The notes under the pieces: generated by a model | Told to the model about the DNA's origin: nothing | What the model saw: only the letters and a program-made list of their open reading frames with translations | Database searches by the model: none | Made by a program: the position numbers and the translations under genes | Shown here: one piece after another, positions 3,818-62,882 of the stretch | Position numbering within the stretch: position 1 is the first letter of the stretch | Layout of the letters: every line of letters starts with the position of its first letter | DNA from: Candidatus Moraniibacteriota bacterium | GTDB lineage: Bacteria > Patescibacteriota > Minisyncoccia > Moranbacterales > GWC2-37-73 | Direction: 5' to 3' | Assembly: GCA_003507445.1 (NCBI GenBank) | Contig: DNVR01000004.1 | Location: forward strand, 28,243-92,242 | DNA length: 64,000 nt

Positions 3818-3862
3818 GCCATAAAACATATAACATATAGCATATAACAAAAAATGCATTCC

Positions 3863-6842: not shown

Positions 6843-6882
6843 TATTGTGAATTGTGAATTGTAAGTTATTAGTTGTCAGTTG

Positions 6883-8631
6883 TTAGTTATTAGTTTTCTT
6901 GAAAACATCCTTCCAATATAAACGCTGGTGTGTTTGTATTGAAATGTCATCTTCATCCTCCAAGATTGGCTCATTCTTTTTTTCAACAACAACCGCCTCT
7001 TCAGTCTTCTCTCTTTTCATTTTATAAATCGCAATGTCCCCAGCGTTTCCAGTTTTTTCAAAATCTCCCAAGATCATCAACTTATCCATTTCATATGTTT
7101 GCTTACTAATCGCAAAATAGCAACCTTTTTTTTCAAAATCTATTTTTTTGGCGAAACTATACGGTCGTTGTTTTCCGTTCAATTTAAAAGCCCATTCAAA
7201 AACATCTTGAAATTCCTGACTTTGCTTTGGTAAATAATAATAGATCGCTCCCCCTTGGCATTCCTTGGACATAATTTTCGCTGTTTTTTCAATCATACCC
7301 CAAGTCCACCAAGCGTCATCTTTTTTAACTTTCAAAATAACAGTGTTTTTAGCATTAAGTGCTCCGCGCTGAGCTCTAGCAAATTCATTAAGCCACAAAA
7401 GAGAGGCTGTCAAATTTCCTGCCAGCATCAAAAGCGCCAAAATAACCACGCTTATTTTTTTTGTTTTTTCAAAAGAACTCTTCCAACGCCACAATAATCC
7501 CAGATGCAAAAACGGCAAAAACATCAGCGGCAAGAAAAATCTTGGCTTGTCTATTTCATAGGCCAAGGGAAAATAAAGCAGAAAAAAAGTTGCCGTCCAA
7601 ACTAAAATAACAAACAGGAAATCTTTCTTTTGCTTTTCTTTTTCTTGGCGCAAAAGCAAAACATTAAGCACTGTTCCGCCAAATAATAATAGGGTGCCAA
7701 GATAATGCAAAATCTTCAAAGACCCCATATAACCAAAAGCTATTCTGAAATAATATTCTCCGAAATAATAAAATTCCCTGCCAATATTCTGCCAAGCAGT
7801 GTGGTCTGAAGTTTTACTGCCAATTGACTTGAAAAACAAATCGAGATTGTCCCCCTTACTCAAAACGTCGCTTACGATTACAGGTATATAAAAAAACAAA
7901 ACTGTCGCAAGAAAGACAACCAAATTTATCCAGCCAACTTTTTGCCAAAAATTTTTATACCTGAAAATCAAAAAAACTGCTGCAAAAATTCCCAGTGCCA
8001 CCATGCTGGTAAAATGCAATTGTGAAGCTATTGCAAAAGCAGTTCCCAATAGCAAAAACCATTGCCATTTTTTTCTTTCGCTATCAGAAAAAATACGCAG
8101 CCAAGCATACAAAAAGAGCAAGACAAAAAACGGGATTGAATTTGGATTCCAAGCAAAACGCGAATATTCAAAAGCCAAAAAACAAAAAGAAAACAATGTT
8201 GTTGAAATCAAACTAACTTTCTCAGAAAAATACAAACGCATCAAAAAGAAAAATAGTGGAATTGCCAGCAATGAAAAAAGCAGATTAGGCAAGGCCAAGA
8301 CTGCCGGCTCAATGGAACCAAAAATTGCCGCACTAGCCGATTGAAAATAATAAAAAAGCGGACCGAGCCTTAGCATTGTTCCACCCGCTCGCGGTCCAAG
8401 CAGTGGCAATTCTCCAAAACCATTTTCAAAAGATCTCGCTGACATCACCGCATCTCTGATTTGATCACCTTTAAGTAGCATTCCACCTGAAAAATCCCAA
8501 ACACGAAGTCCAATCGCAAAGAAAATTGCAACACAAAAAAACCAATACTTGTACTTATTTAAAAATGAAAATATTTTTTGCATATTAATTATTTTCTTCG
8601 GTTTCGGTTTCAATAATTTCCACCACTTCAT
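6883..8631 (-). CDS. GT-C fold glycosyltransferase, ArnT/PMT-like (GT39/GT83 family)
   Basis: 582 aa. The first extracytoplasmic loop GDQIRDA...LPLLGPRAGGT, the multi-TM core and the C-terminal soluble domain match polyprenyl-phosphate-sugar dependent transferases. A plausible alternative start is the internal ATG at 8583 (MQKIFSF), which would remove the 47-nt overlap with the upstream paralog. Confidence 0.65.
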   Translation of the reverse strand: MKWWKLLKPKPKKIINMQKIFSFLNKYKYWFFCVAIFFAIGLRVWDFSGGMLLKGDQIRDAVMSARSFENGFGELPLLGPRAGGTMLRLGPLFYYFQSASAAIFGSIEPAVLALPNLLFSLLAIPLFFFLMRLYFSEKVSLISTTLFSFCFLAFEYSRFAWNPNSIPFFVLLFLYAWLRIFSDSERKKWQWFLLLGTAFAIASQLHFTSMVALGIFAAVFLIFRYKNFWQKVGWINLVVFLATVLFFYIPVIVSDVLSKGDNLDLFFKSIGSKTSDHTAWQNIGREFYYFGEYYFRIAFGYMGSLKILHYLGTLLLFGGTVLNVLLLRQEKEKQKKDFLFVILVWTATFFLLYFPLAYEIDKPRFFLPLMFLPFLHLGLLWRWKSSFEKTKKISVVILALLMLAGNLTASLLWLNEFARAQRGALNAKNTVILKVKKDDAWWTWGMIEKTAKIMSKECQGGAIYYYLPKQSQEFQDVFEWAFKLNGKQRPYSFAKKIDFEKKGCYFAISKQTYEMDKLMILGDFEKTGNAGDIAIYKMKREKTEEAVVVEKKNEPILEDEDDISIQTHQRLYWKDVFKKTNN

Positions 8632-13377: not shown

Positions 13378-13496
13378 ATGTCATTCTGAGCGTAGAGAAT
13401 CTGACTGAAAGGAAGATGAACGAAGTCGAAGAATCTGGGCCCAGATCTTTCGACTTCATTTCGACCTATTGGTCTCAATTCCGCTCAAGATGACAT
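13378..13496. repeat. 119-nt nested palindromic element (MITE/REP-like)
   Basis: Outer inverted repeats atgtcattctgagcg / cgctcaagatgacat. The inner near-perfect 36-bp palindrome gaagtcgaagaatctGGGCCCagatctttcgacttc is GC-rich relative to its flanks. Confidence 0.5.
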
Positions 13497-16806: not shown

Positions 16807-16813
16807 TTATCAT

Positions 16814-16900
16814 GTAGCATATAACATGTAACAGAAATACAAATGCAAGCGAACCTGCAAAAAATCTTTTGTTATATGCTATATGTTTTATGTTATATGA
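16814..16900. repeat. AT-rich inverted-repeat element (CATATAACATATAGCATATAACA family)
   Basis: 12-bp perfect arms tagcatataaca (16816-16827) and tgttatatgcta (16871-16882), separated by 43 nt. The same core motif occurs at 3825-3850 and 22720-22797. Confidence 0.5.
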
Positions 16901-17793: not shown

Positions 17794-19119
17794 TCAACGT
17801 CCTATCGATTTATAATCAAACCCCATCTCTTTCATTTTCTTGGGTTCATACAAGAGTCTGCCATCAAAAATCATTGGAGTTTTCAAAAGTTTTTTAATCT
17901 CATCAAAATCTGGTGTGCGGAATTCTTTCCATTCAGTAATAATAAGCATCGCATCAGCATCTTTAATCGCATCATATTTGTTTTCAAAATATGTAATGCT
18001 TGGATTTTCTCCAAAATATTCCTCACGCTGCGCCATTTTCATTGCTTCTGGATCATGTGCTTGAATTTTTGCTCCCCTTTTGATGAGTTCATTGATAATA
18101 GTAAGCGCTGAAGATTCGCGCATGTCATCAGTGCCGGCCTTAAAAGCCAATCCCCAAACACCAAAAACTTTTCCGATTAAATCTTCGCCCAAAGCATCAA
18201 CAACTATCTGTGACAAAACGAATTTCTGTTTGTCATTTGTTTTTAATGTTTGCATAAGCATCTCAGCATCATATCCAAAATCCTTGGCTGTTTTTACAAG
18301 CGCTTTTACATCTTTTGGAAAACAAGATCCACCAAACCCAGGACCAGCATACATAAACGGTTCGCCGATGCGCGGATCAGCGCCCATTGCCTTTCTAACG
18401 TGATCAAAATCAGCGCCAGCTTTTGAGCAGATGTTTGCTAATTCATTGTTCACAGAAATTTTGGCGGCCAAAAAACAATTTGAAGCATATTTTACAATCT
18501 CGGCTGTTTTTGGATCCATTGAAAAGAAACGTCCTTCACGTCTCATGAACGGTTCATATAGTTCGCGCATTGTTTCAATAACTTCTGCCGAGTCTGCTCC
18601 AATAACAATACGACTAGGCTCTAAGAAATCCTTGACCGCAGTTCCTTGCGCCAAAAATTCAGGATTACTAACAACAGAAAAAGGAATTTCAACCCCTCTT
18701 TTTTTAAGCTCTTGGGAAATATTTTTAGAAACTTTTTCAGCAGTTCCAACCGGCACAGTTGATTTGTCCACAATAATGAGCTCGTGATCCATCATTTGTC
18801 CAATTGAAGTTGCCACGCCAAGCACGTGAGAAAGGTCGGCGCTGCCATCTTCATTAGGAGGCGTTCCTACGGCGATAAAAAGAATGTCACATTTTTTAAG
18901 AGTGTCTTGCAGATCAGTCGTGAATGAAAGGGTTTTATTTTTCAAATTTCGCTCCACTAACTCATCCAAACCTTTCTCGTGAAGTGGAACTTTGCCAGAA
19001 GAAAACTGATCAACTTTTTTTTGATCATTGTCCACGCAAATCACCGTGTTTCCCATCTCTGCAAAACAAGCTCCCGTCACACTCCCAACATATCCCGTCC
19101 CAATAACTCCAATTTTCAT
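17794..19119 (-). CDS. ugd: UDP-glucose 6-dehydrogenase family nucleotide-sugar dehydrogenase
   Basis: 441 aa. N-terminal Rossmann motif MKIGVIGTGYVGSV, and GFGGSCFPKDV carrying the catalytic Cys, are present. Confidence 0.85.
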   Translation of the reverse strand: MKIGVIGTGYVGSVTGACFAEMGNTVICVDNDQKKVDQFSSGKVPLHEKGLDELVERNLKNKTLSFTTDLQDTLKKCDILFIAVGTPPNEDGSADLSHVLGVATSIGQMMDHELIIVDKSTVPVGTAEKVSKNISQELKKRGVEIPFSVVSNPEFLAQGTAVKDFLEPSRIVIGADSAEVIETMRELYEPFMRREGRFFSMDPKTAEIVKYASNCFLAAKISVNNELANICSKAGADFDHVRKAMGADPRIGEPFMYAGPGFGGSCFPKDVKALVKTAKDFGYDAEMLMQTLKTNDKQKFVLSQIVVDALGEDLIGKVFGVWGLAFKAGTDDMRESSALTIINELIKRGAKIQAHDPEAMKMAQREEYFGENPSITYFENKYDAIKDADAMLIITEWKEFRTPDFDEIKKLLKTPMIFDGRLLYEPKKMKEMGFDYKSIGR

Positions 19120-19159
19120 AATTTAAAATATTATACTAATTATATAAATTGCATACTCG

Positions 19160-19480
19160 CATTTTGCATTCCGCATTCCCTTTGCACCATATGAAGTACG
19201 TAGGCAAAAAACGAGTGATGAGCCATTCAAAGTCTCTTTCCTTATTCCTCCTCTCCTTAGATAAGGAGAGGATTGAGGTGAGGTTTGAGCAAAGCCTCGC
19301 TCCACCTCTCTGTCCCGATTCCGTATCGGGACATCTCTCCTGTCCAGGAGAGAATGATATGGAGGAAAACTTTTCTTTGAAGAACGAAGTTTTTGCCACA
19401 GTATCTTCATCAGGTGCGAGTTTTCTTTGCTCCACGTTTCTTTTGCGGAAAAAGAAATGTGGAAATGAGTTTGAATCCGT
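19160..19480. ncRNA. candidate structured noncoding element (unassigned)
   Basis: A 380-nt gap between the GT2 stop (19507) and the ugd start (19119). It is GC-richer than its flanks and packed with perfect hairpins: CCTCTCCTTA/TAAGGAGAGG, GTCCCGAT/ATCGGGAC, CTCTCCTG/CAGGAGAG and CACGTTTCTT/AAGAAATGTG. The overlapping ORFs are low-complexity with no SD. Confidence 0.2.
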
Positions 19481-19506
19481 TGATATTGCTAATGAATTCA
19501 AAGAAA

Positions 19507-20448
19507 TTAGCTTTGACTAATTTCTTTGATATTGTAATTCATCCTCTTTTGTCCTTTGTAATAATTCTTGAGCATAATATCGGCCAAAAGTCCGAACACA
19601 AAAAGTTGGATTCCGACAAGCACTAAGAAAATTCCCACCAATGGCCAGATTTTTTCTGAAAGTGATGCACCAAAGAAAATTTTCTCAACTACCATCCACA
19701 AAAGAACCACCGTTCCTACAAATGAAACAACGATTCCCGTTCCACCAAAAAGATGCAGCGGCCTGTTGGAATATTTGCGCCAAAACCAAATTGAAATCAT
19801 ATCCACAAAGCCCTTCATCCCACGCTTCCAGTTATATTTGGTCACGCCGTGCACGCGAGGATAATGATTTACCTTCACTTCGCCAATCTTATATCCCTGA
19901 AGCTCCAACAATGCTGGCATAAAACGATGCATTTCTCCAAAAAGATCCACATCTTCAAAACAATTTCTTTTGTATGCCTTCAAAGAGCAACCACTATCGT
20001 GAATTGTATCTTGAATTAAAATTTTTCGCAGCAAGTTAGCAGTACGCGAAAATATTTTTTTGCTTAAAGAATCTTTTCTCTTAAAACGCCAACCAGAAAC
20101 AACATCAAATCCTTCTTTCATTTTTTCCAAGAGAAGCCCGATGTCAGCAGGATCATTTTGCAAATCTCCATCCATTGTGATCACAACTTCTCCTTGTGCC
20201 TGTTTTATTCCAGCATCAAAAGCTGCGGTTTGTCCAAAATTTTTACGAAACTTGATTAAAGTAAGAGGAGTCAAGCCTTGGGCATTTTTAATTGTCTCAT
20301 CCTTAGAACCATCATCAATAAAAATAATTTCAAATGGCTTCCCCAGCTTTTCACAGGCATCCAAAATACGCTTGTGTAATTCTCTCACATTTCCTTCTTC
20401 ATTATAAAGTGGCACGACAACTGAGATAAACGGTTTTTGACCTTCCAT
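19507..20448 (-). CDS. GT2 polyprenyl-phosphate glycosyltransferase (DPM1/ArnC/GtrB-like) with C-terminal TM helices
   Basis: 313 aa. N-terminal GT-A signature ISVVVPLYNEEGN, IFIDDGSKD and TMDGDLQ (DXD) are present. Two C-terminal TM helices are typical of ArnC/GtrB-type lipid-phosphate sugar synthases. Confidence 0.75.
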   Translation of the reverse strand: MEGQKPFISVVVPLYNEEGNVRELHKRILDACEKLGKPFEIIFIDDGSKDETIKNAQGLTPLTLIKFRKNFGQTAAFDAGIKQAQGEVVITMDGDLQNDPADIGLLLEKMKEGFDVVSGWRFKRKDSLSKKIFSRTANLLRKILIQDTIHDSGCSLKAYKRNCFEDVDLFGEMHRFMPALLELQGYKIGEVKVNHYPRVHGVTKYNWKRGMKGFVDMISIWFWRKYSNRPLHLFGGTGIVVSFVGTVVLLWMVVEKIFFGASLSEKIWPLVGIFLVLVGIQLFVFGLLADIMLKNYYKGQKRMNYNIKEISQS

Positions 20449-20596
20449 AATTGTTTGATTTATTCAATATTTACCTATCCAGTATAACGTATTTTAGTTT
20501 TATGAGCAATATCCGCAGTTGTTGCTTTTCTTGAAAAAGGGTATAATAACAATGTTGAAATTTCTTTCAGCATTAAACATTAAAAAAATAAAAACA

Positions 20597-21022
20597 ATGA
20601 AGAAAAAACTCGTGGCAATTGCCCTTATGGTTGCATTTGCTTTCCCAGTGACGTTTGTTAGTGCAAACGAAACGACAACAACAACCGAAACAACCACGCA
20701 AGCAAAAAAACAACAACGACTCGCAGCAAACAAAGCTCGTCAGGCAGAAAGATTGGCAGCAATCAAAGCCAAACAAGAAGCAAAAAGATTAGCGCAAATT
20801 GCAAAAAAAGCCGCTCTTTTGAAAAAGCAGGAAGAAAAAAGATTAGCACAGCAAATCAAAAAAGCTGAGCGATTGAAAAAACAAGAAGCAAAAAGACTAG
20901 CAAAGGAAGCTAAAATTGCAGAAAGACAAAAAATCAAAGCAGAAAAACTTGCAGCAAAGGAAGCTAAAAAAGCAGCAAGATTAGCAGCGAAAGCATTGAG
21001 ATTATCTCAAAAAGTACAATAG
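20597..21022 (+). CDS. secreted Lys/Ala-rich repeat (coiled-coil) protein
   Basis: Signal peptide MKKKLVAIALMVAFAFPVTFVSA, followed by repeats of the K(K/Q)QE(A/E)KRLA type. The track start 20519 is probably upstream of the true start; I chose ATG 20597. Confidence 0.5.
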   Translation: MKKKLVAIALMVAFAFPVTFVSANETTTTTETTTQAKKQQRLAANKARQAERLAAIKAKQEAKRLAQIAKKAALLKKQEEKRLAQQIKKAERLKKQEAKRLAKEAKIAERQKIKAEKLAAKEAKKAARLAAKALRLSQKVQ

Positions 21023-21101: not shown

Positions 21102-21175
21102 GTGTCATTCCCTTGAAAAAGGGAATCTAGGTCCGCATTTAAACCTGGATTCCCGCCTCCGCGGGAATGACAAAG
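21102..21175. repeat. GC-rich nested-hairpin element (gtcattccc...gggaatgac family)
   Basis: tgtcattcccttgaaaaagggaat ... attcccgcctccgcgggaatgaca. The outer termini pair and two internal hairpins are present. Related copies are at 24138-24178, 32893-32985 and 62792-62882. Confidence 0.55.
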
Positions 21176-22677: not shown

Positions 22678-22719
22678 TTTCATATAATTCGCAACATACA
22701 ACCAACAACTCACAACATA

Positions 22720-22797
22720 CAACATATAACATATAGCATATAACATACAAAAAAACGAGATTGTTTTTAGTTGGTATTTCTGTTATATGCTATATGC
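22720..22797. repeat. AT-rich inverted-repeat element (same family as 16814-16900)
   Basis: 16-bp perfect arms catatagcatataaca (22730-22745) and tgttatatgctatatg (22781-22796), with a 35-nt spacer. It is preceded by an acaacatacaac-type simple repeat. Confidence 0.5.
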
Positions 22798-24137: not shown

Positions 24138-24178
24138 CCCCCACTTGTCATTCCCGCGGAGGCGGGAATCCAGACCTG
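24138..24178. repeat. truncated copy of GC-rich element (reverse orientation of 21102-21175 right half)
   Basis: tgtcattcccgcggaggcgggaatccag is identical to the reverse complement of 21147-21174. Confidence 0.5.
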
Positions 24179-24236
24179 TATTAAATTTAATAAACTTTAT
24201 AACTTTACAACTTTAAACTTTATAACTTCTACCTAT

Positions 24237-25645: not shown

Positions 25646-25712
25646 TAAATTATTCATTAAATCATTAGGATTTGATTAAAAATTTAAAATTTAAAATTTA
25701 AAATTACCTATT

Positions 25713-31198: not shown

Positions 31199-31330
31199 TT
31201 TGTTGTTTAAATGATATTATTTTTTAATAATATCACATTAAAACCCCTTTTACTAGCCAACAAAACAACTAAAATATGGCTGCATAAAACTATCACTAGA
31301 CATCTAAAATATGGGTGCTATACTTTTTAT

Positions 31331-31522
31331 ATGAGAATAACTAAATGTGACATTTGCAAAAAAACAATCAAACGAGGAACTGAACGCCTCGATTTAAGTT
31401 ATAGCAATATTAAGACTTTTGCTTCTTTTGAACTTTGCACTATTTGCAGTGTTCCGATAATAAAATTTTTGCAGGATAAAAAGCTAATCAAAATTGAAGA
31501 AAACAAAAAAGATGAAAAATAA
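31331..31522 (+). CDS. small zinc-ribbon protein (CxxC...CxxC), hypothetical
   Basis: 63 aa, MRITKCDICKK...ELCTICSV. I chose the internal ATG of track ORF 31211..31522. Confidence 0.35.
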   Translation: MRITKCDICKKTIKRGTERLDLSYSNIKTFASFELCTICSVPIIKFLQDKKLIKIEENKKDEK

Positions 31523-31907
31523 CAATCAACTTAATAAAGAAATTACACTTAGCGCTATAGCTGAACTTATTGAAGCTAGTGCAAAGAAAACCTCTGCGGC
31601 ATTGGAAGCTAAGATTGAAGCTAGTGCAAAGAAAACCATAGAAACACTAGAAGCAAAAATTGAACAGTCTGCTGAAAATTTAGCAACGATGACCCAAAAT
31701 CAATTTCTGGAAATAGATGCACGATTTGATAGTGTAGACAAAAGATTTGATAGTGTAGACAAAAGATTAGATAACGTTGAAATAAGATTAGCAGGTGTTG
31801 AAATGAAAGTTGACCGTATTGAAGGTGAAATTATCAAGAAAGTTGACACGGTTAAATATAACACAACCAAATATCGCGTAAAAAAACTGGAAGAAAAATT
31901 CGCATAA
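31512..31907 (+). CDS. coiled-coil protein with RFDSVDKR repeats (hypothetical)
   Basis: The track start 31494 is TTG; the first ATG is at 31512. Heptad-rich sequence includes tandem RFDSVDKRFDSVDKRLDNVEIRLAGVE. It is a paralog of 32223..32645. Confidence 0.5.
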   Translation: MKNNNQLNKEITLSAIAELIEASAKKTSAALEAKIEASAKKTIETLEAKIEQSAENLATMTQNQFLEIDARFDSVDKRFDSVDKRLDNVEIRLAGVEMKVDRIEGEIIKKVDTVKYNTTKYRVKKLEEKFA

Positions 31908-31934
31908 AAAACATCCATACACAACGAAACTAAC

Positions 31935-31962
31935 AAAAAACTGGCATAGTACCAGTTTTTTG
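31935..31962 (+). terminator. weak rho-independent terminator
   Basis: AAAAAACTGG catagta CCAGTTTTTT, a 5-bp stem flanked by A6/T6. Confidence 0.4.
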
Positions 31963-32070
31963 ATGCTCAAATTCCCTTCCACATCCACTGGTGAGTATTA
32001 ACCAGTCAATACTCACCCCATATCTAATATATTAGCCTTATTTAAGCCATATATAGACGCTTTTTGGTAT

Positions 32071-32166
32071 ACTCAAATTCCCGTCCCCATCCATATATTA
32101 ATTAAAGGATGTGATAATGTTTTAACTCAAAAGAGACATTCCTGCCGAGAACGGTCCTCGGCAAGT
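32071..32166. repeat. composite repeat copy A (AT palindrome catccatatattaattaaaggatg + GC hairpin ccgagaacggtcctcgg)
   Basis: It shares both modules, and the linker ttttaactcaaaagRgacattcct, with copies at 32691-32856 and 33204-33293. Confidence 0.5.
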
Positions 32167-32173
32167 TTACCCA

Positions 32174-32207
32174 TCAAAAAAATCAGAACTTAGTTCTGAT
32201 TTTTTCC
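32174..32207. terminator. bidirectional rho-independent terminator
   Basis: AAAAAA ATCAGAAC tta GTTCTGAT TTTTT, located 15 nt beyond the stop of the minus-strand gene 32223..32645. Confidence 0.6.
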
Positions 32208-32222
32208 TTCCATGTATTGATT

Positions 32223-32645
32223 TTATTGAGTTGCGAAAGTTGCTTTTTCCAATTTAAATATCCGCTTTTCATGTTTATCTATAACCTCTTTCTCAGCTTT
32301 ATTATCAAGTTTTTCTTTTATTTCCTTAACATCACTCTGTGTATCTTTTATGTCGATTTTCATTTCAACGATATTTGCTTTAACATAATCCATATCTTCA
32401 ATCAAAAAATTAACATTCTCTTCAACACCACCAAGTCTAATATCAAATCTTTCAAATTTTTCTTTCAAATCAGAAACTTCCGATTTAACTTCATTCAATC
32501 CTCTTTTTACATCATCCAACCCCTCGCCAAAAACCTTAAAATCTCCTCGAATTTCTTCAAGAATTGCAACGACTTGATCCTTTGGCATTGAATCTTTTTT
32601 TGTTTCTTGTTTTTTTCCCATAAATTTATTATAACATCGAGCCAA
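32223..32645 (-). CDS. coiled-coil protein (paralog of 31512..31907), hypothetical
   Basis: The track start 32645 is TTG. ATG at 32621 (MGKKQETKK) is favoured because a TTGACG-16-TATAAT promoter ends 6 nt upstream, giving a leaderless mRNA. It shares the RFD..RL.GVE motif with its paralog. Confidence 0.5.
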   Translation of the reverse strand: MARCYNKFMGKKQETKKDSMPKDQVVAILEEIRGDFKVFGEGLDDVKRGLNEVKSEVSDLKEKFERFDIRLGGVEENVNFLIEDMDYVKANIVEMKIDIKDTQSDVKEIKEKLDNKAEKEVIDKHEKRIFKLEKATFATQ

Positions 32646-32655
32646 CTTTCGTCAA
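32628..32655 (-). promoter_or_regulatory. sigma70-like promoter (TTGACG-16-TATAAT), leaderless start
   Basis: Minus-strand reading is ttgacg aaagttggctcgatgt tataat aaattt ATG. Confidence 0.45.
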
Positions 32656-32690
32656 ATACTTCCACCTACGCTCTACCTACAATAAAACCA

Positions 32691-32856
32691 CGTCCATATA
32701 TTAATTAATTGATGTGAGGTATTTTTAATTAACCATTCCTGCCGAGTACGGTCCTTGGTGAGAATCCACATATGCGGCGCCACTAGCTGACGACCGCACA
32801 GAAGTGGCGCCAAATAGATTATGTGTGCCTAGACTGCCGAGGACCGTCCTCGGTGG
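32691..32856. repeat. composite repeat copy B (AT palindrome + two GC hairpins + extra GGCGCCACT...AGTGGCGCC hairpin)
   Basis: cgtccatatattaattaattgatgtg; ccattcctgccgagtacggtccttgg; gactgccgaggaccgtcctcgg. Confidence 0.5.
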
Positions 32857-32892
32857 ATTAATCTTATCGAATTAACTGAAATAGCAGTACAT

Positions 32893-32985
32893 TGTCATCC
32901 TCAGCTTGCCGTGCCCGCCTATGGAGGGACTGGGGATCCAGAGTGATGCCTGGCCATGGATTCCCTTTTTCAAGGGAATGACAAA
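32893..32985. repeat. GC-rich nested-hairpin element (gtcat...gggaatgac family)
   Basis: tgtcatcctcagcttgccgtgcccgcctatggagggactggggatccagagtgatgcctggccatggattccctttttcaagggaatgacaaa. It is about 90% identical to 62792-62882, and its 3' hairpin equals the reverse complement of 21104-21126. Confidence 0.55.
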
Positions 32986-33203
32986 CTACTATAGATTCAG
33001 TTATTTTGGTATTATTAAAATCATTTAGTGTCAACTTCGCTGTACATCATTATTGTATTCAGTGTCAAGTATAATTTACACTGATTTTTATTTGCAGTAT
33101 ATTACCCTGTCTTAGCTCTTTTTTCATCTTTTTTATTGTTTTCCATTTTTATTATTTATGATGATATTATATCACTTCTTTATTTTATTAACAAGATAAA
33201 CAA

Positions 33204-33293
33204 AACACATCCATATATTAATTAATGGATGTGTTTTGTTTTAATTCATTTTAACTCAAAAGGGACATTCCTACCGAGGACCGTCCTCGGTGG
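33204..33293. repeat. composite repeat copy C (11-bp-arm palindrome aacacatccat...atggatgtgtt + GC hairpin ccgaggaccgtcctcgg)
   Basis: The hairpin ends 4 nt before the stop of minus-strand gene 33295..34449. Confidence 0.5.
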
Positions 33294-33294
33294 T

Positions 33295-60452: not shown

Positions 60453-60503
60453 ATGATGTATGTATTTTACTTTATAAACTTTATGAACTTGTAACTTTAT
60501 AAC

Positions 60504-61460
60504 TTAATAAAGATTTTTGTTTTCTTGATACCAAGCGATAAATCGCTCCATCCCTTCTTCAATTTTTACTTTTGGATCATAGCCGAGAAGTTTTCGGGAT
60601 TTTGTGAGGTCAGCGTTGGTAATTAAAACATCTCCTGGTTGCATTGGATATTCCTTAATGTTAGCCTTTTTGCCAAGAATTTTTTCTACTGTGGAGATAA
60701 AATAACTAAGATCAACGGTGTTAGAATTTCCAAGGTTAAAAATTTCATATCCAAAAATCTTATCGACTGCAGCCACTACCCCATCAACCAAATCATCAAT
60801 AAAAGTATAATCTCTTCGAGTTGAACCATCCCCAAAACGCTTAACCTCAAAGCCTTCGTCAATCAATTTTGTGGCTAAAAATGGAAACATATCAGGCCGT
60901 CCACCGGGCCCGTAGACCGTAAAGGGACGTACGACATTTACGTTGAGGTCATATAAATGGTGGTATGTGTACCCTAGAAGCTCTGTGGCCTTCTTGGTGG
61001 CTGCATAGGGTGAAATGGGACAATCTACCACCTCATTTTCGGAAAATGGCACTTTTGAAGAGTTTCCATACACCGAAGACGAACTGAATAACACAAAATT
61101 TTCAATCTTAAATTCCTTAGCTAAATGCAAAAGATTAAGCGTGCCTTTCACATTTGTGTCTTCATATATGAAAGGATTTTCAATGCTTGGACGCACTCCA
61201 GCTCTGGCTGCTGCATGCACGACTCGCTGGATATTTTCTTTTTCAAAAACAGATTTTAAAAATTCATAGTCCGTGATACTTCCACGATATAATGAATAAT
61301 TTGGATTATCTGCAAATTGAGCAACATTAAGCTCTTTTATTTTTGGAGAATAATAATCATTAAATTCATCGACGCAGACAACAGAGTCTCCGCGCTCTAA
61401 TAATTTTTTTGTAACATTGCTGCCAATAAAGCCAGCGCCACCAGTAACTAGAATTCGCAT
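60504..61460 (-). CDS. UDP-glucuronate 4-epimerase-like NAD-dependent epimerase (extended SDR)
   Basis: 318 aa with MRILVTGGAGFIGSN and SPYAATKKATE (YxxxK). Overall it resembles Cap1J/WbpP/GalE-type epimerases, and ugd is in the same window. Confidence 0.7.
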   Translation of the reverse strand: MRILVTGGAGFIGSNVTKKLLERGDSVVCVDEFNDYYSPKIKELNVAQFADNPNYSLYRGSITDYEFLKSVFEKENIQRVVHAAARAGVRPSIENPFIYEDTNVKGTLNLLHLAKEFKIENFVLFSSSSVYGNSSKVPFSENEVVDCPISPYAATKKATELLGYTYHHLYDLNVNVVRPFTVYGPGGRPDMFPFLATKLIDEGFEVKRFGDGSTRRDYTFIDDLVDGVVAAVDKIFGYEIFNLGNSNTVDLSYFISTVEKILGKKANIKEYPMQPGDVLITNADLTKSRKLLGYDPKVKIEEGMERFIAWYQENKNLY

Positions 61461-61579
61461 ACTGCAATTTTAAATTTTAAATTTGAAATTTTAAATCAAT
61501 TTTTAAATTCTAAATAAATAATTTTTAAACATTTTTTATTCAGATTTCATTTCAAATTTTAAATTTAGCCTTTAAAATT

Positions 61580-62791: not shown

Positions 62792-62882
62792 ATCATCCTC
62801 AGCTTGCCGTGCCCGCCTCTGGAGGGACTGAGGATCCAGAGTGGTGCCTAGCCCTGGATTCCCGTTTTCACGGGAATGACAT
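62792..62882. repeat. GC-rich nested-hairpin element (near-identical to 32893-32985)
   Basis: atcatcctcagcttgccgtgcccgcctctggagggactgaggatccagagtggtgcctagccctggattcccgttttcacgggaatgacat, located between two GT4 genes. Confidence 0.55.

Follow-up and report, generated by a model that had tools for sequence, protein, structure and literature searches.

The elements known as enterobacterial repetitive intergenic consensus (ERIC) sequences or intergenic repeat units (IRU) are imperfect palindromes of about 130–200 nt that lie exclusively between genes, in either orientation and in tens of copies per genome. Longer variants have insertions at fixed internal sites, and shorter ones have internal deletions. 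To our knowledge, no transposase has been assigned to them. Another point of reference is the 28-nt Neisseria Transformation Sequence (NTS), with the consensus CGTCATTCCCGCGMAVGCGGGAATCYRG; a pattern termed SRM has been defined for the targets of Ssn GIY-YIG single-stranded-DNA nucleases (PMC11893778). Here, we analyse a 64,000-nt stretch of contig DNVR01000004.1 of a Candidatus Moraniibacteriota bacterium (the window), and in particular the spacer between a family-2 glycosyltransferase (GT2) gene and the UDP-glucose 6-dehydrogenase gene, ugd. We consider it likely that two non-coding palindromic intergenic repeats make up this spacer as a nested mosaic, element C inside repeat H, which occupies an insertion hot spot and has spread as selfish DNA. 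The descriptive part of this statement (C nested within H, then a heptamer array, then the TATAAT region of ugd itself) is well supported by sequence comparison. An earlier note on this DNA, made from the letters of the window, had listed a "decayed element" among its guesses. This was close, but an intact composite of two nested repeat elements is the sharper description.

The spacer is 387 nt long (19120-19506), and both neighbouring genes lie on the minus strand (Table 1). An identical GT2 protein is encoded on 15 groundwater metagenome or metagenome-assembled-genome contigs. The spacer is identical in six independent assemblies and hence stable in assembly, which contradicts the idea that it is an assembly artefact. 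A seventh assembly (GCA_003510165.1) has Ns inside the spacer: 'TGTNN' is inserted within the left arm of H (GATACTGTNNTGTGGC; L002:~6040, contig DOKX01000001.1), where the palindromic repeat has probably misled the scaffolding.

The outer parts of the spacer are the two halves of H, a dispersed repeat of about 190 nt plus the heptamer array. The exact left-arm 23-mer GATGAAGATACTGTGGCAAAAAC gave 49 matches in 46 metagenome stretches, with up to four on single contigs of 173 kb and 221 kb, a density of roughly one copy per 45–60 kb; genomes of this Moranbacteria lineage hold many copies each. About 47 non-identical copies with unrelated flanks were obtained in this way; conservation of the left arm within this set is by construction, as the copies were picked by that 23-mer. 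With an nhmmer profile built from 24 canonical copies, the window yields a single copy, whose two parts flank an insert, and the 7-kb ugd loci of more distant species yield none. From the 23-mer to the right end of H, canonical copies measure 134–135 nt and the window copy 228 nt. A fuzzy search with the stem arms also located full copies downstream of ugd in contigs L006 and L010; L010 has, in addition, a half copy at another site. The 3′ arm of the long stem, P2, is kept upstream of ugd in both contigs, as it is in copies at other loci. Heptamers of the form RRATRCN, two to more than eight units long, occupy the right flanks of at least 40 H copies. Since blastn of the spacer against the rest of the window gave chance matches only, the repeat nature of this sequence is invisible from inside the window.

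Table 1. Features of the GT2-ugd spacer and its neighbours, in window coordinates.
Feature	Position	Strand	Evidence
Upstream gene: family-2 glycosyltransferase (GT2), 313 aa	19507..20448	-	Pfam PF00535, E 1e-31
AT-rich perfect 13-bp hairpin over the GT2 stop codon	19498..19529	.	Inverted-repeat and hairpin lists; not in repeat H
Left half of H: hairpin P1 (19431-19463) and 5′ arm of long stem P2 (19389-19417)	19383..19470	-	nhmmer model 6-136 at 19473..19345, E 3e-27; alignments; 23-mer GATGAAGATACTGTGGCAAAAAC
Element C: closing stem and hairpins D 19249-19272, C 19275-19308, B 19311-19333, A 19334-19353	~19225..19382	-	Missing from canonical H copies; homologue elsewhere
Right half of H: 3′ arm of P2 (19184-19212)	19183..19224	-	nhmmer model 166-211 at 19223..19178, E 1e-12
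Heptamer array GGGAATG CGGAATG CAAAATG ...	19151..19182	-	Tandem Repeats Finder: period 7, consensus CGCATTC, 19158-19179; 3′ of the right end in nearly every H copy
ugd-proximal AT-rich segment with two TATAAT boxes (19139-19144, 19130-19135)	19120..19150	-	Direct reading of the sequence; outside the repeats
Downstream gene: UDP-glucose 6-dehydrogenase (ugd), 441 aa	17794..19119	-	Pfam PF03721, PF00984, PF03720 (UDPG_MGDP_dh N, central and C domains)

Read in the GT2/ugd orientation, H comprises hairpin P1 (TTTCCA..TTTCTTTTT/AAAAAGAAA..TGGAGG), the almost invariant stem P2, in which GCACC-ATGAAG-TAC-GT-GGC-AAAAAC pairs with an imperfect complement, and a central domain made of an AAATTT/AAATTT stem and an apical hairpin with the conserved loop CTGCTG. 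When this structure, as specified by us, is laid over 22 copies, 95.2% of the cells are paired, and 12 pairs (34 cells) have changed on both sides; none of 500 shuffles reaches these values, and controls in which the structure was slid along the alignment give 41–51% pairing. The covariation sits in the central domain, where AAATTT/AAATTT becomes GAATTT/AAATTC or GGATTT/AAATCC, CGTC/GACG becomes CGCT/AGCG or CGCC/GGCG, and GCGCC/GGCGC becomes GTGCC/GGCAC. The outer stem of this domain had first looked like a target duplication (AAAATTT on either side of the central hairpin); we dropped that candidate, because the sequence is the covarying stem just described. The earlier note had suggested looking for covariation among orthologous regions: it does exist, but between paralogous repeat copies rather than between orthologous ugd leaders. 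G-U intermediates are rare. Two fixed T-G positions aside, the copies hold four G-T and 12 A-C mispairs, with no strand bias, and for this reason the pairing data do not separate a structured RNA from a palindrome acting at the DNA level.

All H copies are intergenic, and many begin a few bases after a stop codon; glycosyltransferase genes are frequent neighbours. In 32 contexts scored from crude open-reading-frame (ORF) calls, H stands in tandem-sense orientation 13 times, in tandem-antisense 10 times and between convergent genes nine times, with no divergent case. H therefore adjoins at least one gene 3′ end, in either orientation, which argues against a strand-specific regulatory RNA and fits elements of the repetitive extragenic palindromic (REP), ERIC or miniature inverted-repeat transposable element (MITE) kind. 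It is nonetheless worth asking whether H, with or without C, serves the host as a structured RNA, be it a multi-copy small RNA or, more plausibly, a 3′-untranslated or intercistronic stem-loop with a stabilising, RNase III-type processing or insulating role that uncouples ugd from GT2. The strength of the structure, the covarying central hairpins with their conserved loop, the position just after stop codons and the absence of divergent contexts among the 32 are all in keeping with such a role. So is the L010 copy downstream of ugd, which has the stop codon on one side and a canonical terminator hairpin on the other and, because of this placement, is probably transcribed; and relatives carry, in the same spacer, cassettes with long stems like those of rRNA intervening sequences. 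On the other hand, the two orientations are about equally common in tandem contexts, the wobbles lack strand asymmetry, and the central hairpin has been replaced or an arm deleted in many copies (those of the window, L010, L092, L106 and L107). The repeat has, moreover, no promoter or terminator signature and no Rfam family. On balance, a host-serving RNA strikes us as unlikely.

In the window copy, the central hairpin of H has given way to element C, a GC-rich unit of about 150 nt with four hairpins. A blastn search of the C core against all fetched loci gave a single homologue (L127:3474-3610, the same as L094:4604-4740; 74% identity over 147 nt, E 1e-19). This second copy is free-standing in a 314-nt spacer, outside any H copy, and its orientation relative to the flanking genes is opposite to that in the window. 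Both copies fold alike, into a closing stem with four adjacent hairpins, a five-way architecture. Between the window and L127, compensatory changes exchange G-C for T-A in hairpin A and T-A for C-G in hairpin D, and hairpin B has 9 bp in the window versus 5 bp in L127. We also tried C as a diverged member of the GTCATTC or NTS-like hairpin family described below and rejected this, since the second copy lacks the 'TCATTC' start. Neither the H 23-mer nor hairpin D of C has a match among viral contigs, and phage and plasmid collections searched in distant blastn mode gave none either.

Replacement of the centre is one instance of a broader turnover of modules in H. Other copies carry small hairpin modules at two internal sites, one after CCTGGAGG and one in the central loop: GC palindromes in L006 and L118, a 37-nt hairpin in L092 and L107, units of about 55 nt in L105, L119 and L134, and a three-hairpin unit beginning with GTCATTCC in L106 and L107. 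Even orthologous H copies of related strains differ by such modules (L131 versus L118, L102 versus L134). Copies of H also differ by insertions and deletions that are not multiples of three, with central parts of 58, 65, 69, 70 and 71 nt.

The site itself was compared across Moranbacteria (Parcubacteria, Candidate Phyla Radiation (CPR)), in a ugd-based scan with one genome per species that returned 19 loci with ugd genes 75–94% identical. GT2 is followed by ugd in 17 of the 19, with spacers of 11, 13, 13, 13, 23, 50, 51, 51, 58, 114, 130, 203, 220, 316, 453, 529 and 922 nt. On the basis of these lengths (58 nt or less in nine of the 17 species), the short spacer is a widespread and probably ancestral state. 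The long spacers of relatives hold unrelated inserts that also differ among themselves. Only contig L006 and L010 (the closest named species) share part of the window's spacer sequence. In L010, just the right half of H is kept, and a GTCATTCC unit takes the place of the left half. In L006, both outer parts are kept around a different and shorter centre, which is the canonical H centre; the same centre is found at this site in the 21.6-kb contig L108, which independently shows the L006-like order of canonical H, ugd and a further H. Along the 3.9-kb L006, compared with window positions 17794-20448, GT2 is 99.5% and ugd 88.5% identical, and the jump in identity falls across the spacer. Elsewhere, the spacer of L011 (L011:2472-3000) contains a PDDEXK_3 gene and that of L020 (L020:2548-3000) a 23S_rRNA_IVP (four-helix-bundle) gene, as assigned by Pfam, and each of these inserts is enclosed by inverted repeats of 30–31 nt (87% complementary), which together take up the interval between the GT2 stop and the ugd ATG with the gene inside. 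These inverted repeats are made of heptamer-like words, and the cassettes resemble rRNA intervening sequences, here inside an operon spacer. Other palindromic inserts occupy the spacers of L015, L018 and L012. As far as sequence comparison can tell, the differing inserts in the long orthologous spacers mark this site as an insertion hot spot in the clade.

These comparisons bear on the proposal, put forward in the earlier note, that the spacer is a small RNA or a cis-regulatory leader or riboswitch of ugd. The spacer does lie upstream of ugd and is highly structured. Against this, the sequence is missing from the orthologous spacer in most relatives and recurs at dozens of intergenic loci unrelated to ugd, in both orientations, and the structured part stands upstream of conserved TATAAT boxes. 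The Rfam search that the note recommended returned no family: there is no match in the whole window at gathering thresholds, the best hit to the spacer at E≤10, ar14, scores 24.6 bits where its threshold is 58.8, and a canonical H copy and the second copy of C gave chance-level matches only at the same E-value. The note had also named short, unstructured spacers in relatives as the finding that would speak against its proposal, and this is largely what they display, with 11–58 nt in nine of the 17 species and unrelated sequence in the longer ones. A leader or riboswitch of ugd is therefore very improbable.

What the earlier note had read directly from the letters fared better. The spacer coordinates and the identity of both flanking genes are correct, as judged by Pfam, and the structure is clearly non-random: the minimum free energy of the spacer has a z-score of −6.15 on the minus strand and −7.77 on the plus strand relative to dinucleotide shuffles, none of 100 shuffles being as good. 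All four of its stem-loops of 8–10 bp are present, though not all are perfect. Hairpin D of element C has 11-bp arms, hairpins B and A have 9 bp each, and the CACGTTTCTT/AAGAAATGTG hairpin, which is P1 of H, has 14-nt arms that are 93% complementary with one G-T wobble. The long-range GAGGTG/CACCTC pair is also there (19275-19308, hairpin C of the element). The note had overlooked two further structures, the 13-bp AT-rich hairpin at the GT2 stop codon (19498-19529) and the imperfect long-range stem in which 19184-19212 pairs with 19389-19417. The window as a whole has seven perfect hairpins whose stems reach 8 bp or more with a GC content of 45% or more, and three of these fall in a single 105-nt stretch inside the spacer. 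"GC-rich" holds in a relative sense only (39.5% versus 33.9% for the whole window), although the 110-nt core at 19246-19355 reaches 52.7%. The note gave the spacing of genes elsewhere in the locus as 0–100 nt; other spacers of more than 200 nt exist in the window. By contrast, the observation that ugd has TATAAT boxes of its own downstream of the structured part is borne out, as the motif is kept in L006, L010 and L011.

It is extremely improbable that the spacer derives from a decayed protein-coding gene or is a genuine small gene. Overlapping ORFs of 95, 121 and 123 aa do span it, and the 123-aa one is annotated as a gene in L001 and L004. None of the three, however, matches a Pfam family at E≤1, and L003, L005 and L006 have the ORFs in broken or shortened form, although L006 encodes the same GT2 protein. 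Indels among copies disregard the reading frame, as noted above, and the palindromic repeats explain the whole sequence.

Turning to transcription, the segment at 19120-19150 is probably the ugd promoter with a short leader, to go by its sequence; TAATTAGYATAATATTTTAAA, directly 5′ of the ugd ATG, is kept in L006, L010 and L011. A simple sigma-70 scan did not call this segment because it has no −35 match. More generally, the promoter and terminator scan of the spacer gave nothing above shuffles on the minus strand. The sole terminator-like site (19498-19529) is on the plus strand only, and no intrinsic terminator (a GC-rich hairpin followed by a U tract) was found on the transcribed minus strand. 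As no terminator separates them, GT2 and the H and C composite probably share a transcript. The composite would in that case fold into a large, stable stem-loop with which the GT2 message ends, and ugd would be driven by its own TATAAT promoter immediately downstream, in the TAATTAGYATAATATTTTAAA segment. Any effect on ugd, such as insulation, 3′-end protection or RNase III-type processing, would be a by-product of the composite rather than the work of a dedicated ligand or signal switch.

How, then, might H and C have spread? We envisage them as selfish or semi-domesticated repeats, acting at the DNA level, that gather in permissive spacers. They may move by non-autonomous transposition, or by hairpin-targeted insertion combined with recombination between copies, and new modules may land preferentially in the loops of existing hairpins. 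In its general character H conforms to a MITE: it is short and non-coding, has many dispersed copies with unrelated flanks, and holds no consistent ORF. In many copies, the right heptamers (GGGAATGCGGAATGC), when inverted, are similar to the left end (CATTTCCACATTTC).

Several observations nevertheless weigh against spread as selfish DNA. H lacks clear terminal inverted repeats, its right end being a set of variable heptamers (for example AATACTA in L115) without a matching change at the left end. No target-site duplication was detected, in that the longest word shared by the two flanks averages 6.2 nt versus 5.9 nt in mismatched controls, although the right boundary of H is fuzzy and a short duplication could escape this test. 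No transposase-like ORF recurs near H copies; the 356 clustered ORFs of repeat-bearing loci gave paralogues of the glycosyltransferase type only. Nor is there a clean empty site downstream of ugd among the window, L010, L006 and L011, which are too diverged for a clean junction. Transposition of H is therefore an inference. Element C is known from two loci only. Furthermore, the covarying CTGCTG-loop hairpin and the near-invariant P2 suggest a function that is specific in sequence or structure (a protein or nuclease site, or an RNA) and goes beyond selfishness, and L006 may be either a recombinant at the repeat or a chimeric assembly joined there.

A further family of hairpins in the window raises the possibility that the spacer is kept for recombination. 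The GTCATTCC hairpins approach the 28-nt NTS consensus with two mismatches at 21145-21172 and 24146-24173 and three at 62854-62881, where none is expected by chance, and the last of these, outside the spacer, is the one match of the window to the published SRM pattern. The same NTS-like 28-mer is present in the orthologous GT2-ugd spacer of L010, and members of the GTCATTC hairpin family are nested in the H copies L106 and L107. Together with the setting of the repeats among glycosyltransferase genes, the identity jump in L006, and compensatory changes that show no strand bias and rarely include G-U intermediates (as befits a DNA-level palindrome), this could mean that the hairpins are single-stranded-DNA sites for a nuclease or recombinase, of an Ssn/GIY-YIG-like or Y1/HUH type. 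Their role would be to modulate recombination or transformation near genes for surface glycans, like that of NTS and dRS3 in Neisseria, and the spacer would be a mosaic comparable to the Neisseria intergenic mosaic elements and retained for that purpose. Yet there is no match to the NTS consensus with up to three mismatches inside 19120-19506. Neither does H or C share a demonstrated motif with NTS beyond a weak resemblance of ends. No GIY-YIG ORF was found in the window or beside the NTS-like copies, by a crude motif scan of six-frame ORFs and by Pfam on 12 repeat-adjacent ORFs, which cover a small part of the genome. The role of NTS outside Neisseria is itself unknown (PMC11893778). We regard this reading of the spacer as quite unlikely.

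An extended version would unite the whole set as a hairpin-DNA system of CPR bacteria. In it, a small site-specific nuclease or recombinase would recognise, as single-stranded DNA, both the conserved CTGCTG-loop hairpin and the NTS-like units. This enzyme would drive the insertion of modules into hairpin loops and localised recombination of the surface-glycan loci, and the 23S_rRNA_IVP and PDDEXK_3 cassettes that relatives have in this spacer would be gene-carrying members of the class. This, too, is a conjecture that we would not expect to hold, and we offer it as doubtful.

The NTS-like hairpins have several further properties. In the window, hairpins of the form GTCATTCCC..GGGAATCCAG occur among glycosyltransferase genes at 21103-21172 (two inverted units), 24146-24173, 32956-32985 and 62854-62881, and also at 13380. 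Their stems covary between copies, and about 30 units are present in 0.9 Mb of fetched loci, including those of a more distant species (L013). A repeat of at least 85 nt (ctcagcttgccgtgcccgcc..ggagggactg.ggatccagagtg...), with an NTS-like hairpin at its end, is shared by ~32900-32985 and ~62800-62882; it is a longer, three-hairpin unit of the same kind as those in the L010 GT2-ugd spacer and the H copies L106 and L107. At L130:776-1114, equivalent to L106:3380-3718, a 112-aa ORF with no Pfam match and no GIY-YIG signature lies between two inverted NTS-like hairpins, which is the arrangement described for ssnA genes.

Many intergenic spacers of the window, among them the one with the heptamers next to H, contain a short tandem array of a 7–9-nt word in three to eight copies (1475-1558, 2156-2277, 3820-3854, 6844-6895, 16811-16899, 19151-19182, 22692-22750, 24182-24228, 25675-25705, 60469-60510 and 61466-61538). 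The word varies between spacers, and in some cases a pair of arrays stands face to face, one inverted relative to the other. Arrays of this kind also fill the short GT2-ugd spacers of L026, L019, L018 and L015. Elsewhere in the window, tandem repeats of 54, 45 and 21 nt (20771-20902, 31569-31791) lie in lysine-rich, coiled-coil-like ORFs (20519-21022, 31494-31907) with no convincing Pfam family, and the region 31199-33294 has no long ORF.

H and C are previously undescribed repeat families in Moranbacteria, a CPR lineage with very small genomes; in the literature on MITE, REP, NIME-like or IVS-protein repeats of CPR and Parcubacteria, we found no report of such elements in this lineage. Their recognition removes a false lead, as the spacer is not a ugd riboswitch or small RNA, and explains spurious 'hypothetical protein' calls. 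The repeats probably also account for assembly gaps and chimeras here, such as the Ns in GCA_003510165.1 and the identity jump in L006. If the hairpins are protein recognition sites, control of recombination in CPR glycan loci would become testable. Should the broader hairpin-DNA system prove true, the Ssn/NTS paradigm would extend to ultra-small CPR genomes and offer a mechanism for the diversity of glycan loci.

Finally, the composite can be set beside the known systems. Its nearest analogues are ERIC/IRU, the BIME and NIME mosaics and Correia-type MITEs, none of which shares sequence ancestry with it as far as comparison shows. Genes of the 23S_rRNA_IVP and PDDEXK_3 families, which are associated with rRNA intervening sequences, stand in the GT2-ugd spacers of L020 and L011, and H is likewise bracketed by heptamer-like words; unlike those cassettes, the window element has no ORF, resides in an mRNA spacer and shares no sequence with them. 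H and C resemble Correia elements and other MITEs in being short, non-coding, multi-copy and palindromic, with nested or variant forms and presence/absence differences between strains, but differ in lacking clear terminal inverted repeats, a target-site duplication and any related insertion sequence among those searched. The Neisseria intergenic mosaic elements (NIME), which contain dRS3 and NTS (Ssn targets; PMC11893778), likewise combine several repeat types near variable surface-structure genes, and both the window and the GT2-ugd spacer of the sister species hold hairpins two to three mismatches from NTS. In contrast to NIME, the window's spacer has no NTS-like unit, no Ssn gene appeared in the sequence searched, and H and C have no flanking repeats of the dRS3 type. 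With REP sequences and the bacterial interspersed mosaic elements (BIME) of E. coli and its relatives, H and C have in common a mosaic of hairpin modules in spacers at gene 3′ ends, with protection or termination of the upstream mRNA as a possible by-product; enzymes acting on hairpin DNA are associated with BIMEs. REP units, however, are 20–40 nt long and number in the hundreds, whereas H is a single unit of about 190 nt, its modules are mutually unrelated, and no RAYT-type gene was seen. From ERIC/IRU, H is set apart by the absence of any sequence relationship, by its occurrence in the CPR/Moranbacteria phylum, by the adjoining heptamer array and by the covarying apical hairpin with its conserved loop. 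It matches them in size, in its tens of copies per genome, in having no known transposase, in its restriction to intergenic regions, in its occurrence in either orientation and in its variants with internal insertions, and a shortened form is also seen (compare L010:7134-7241).

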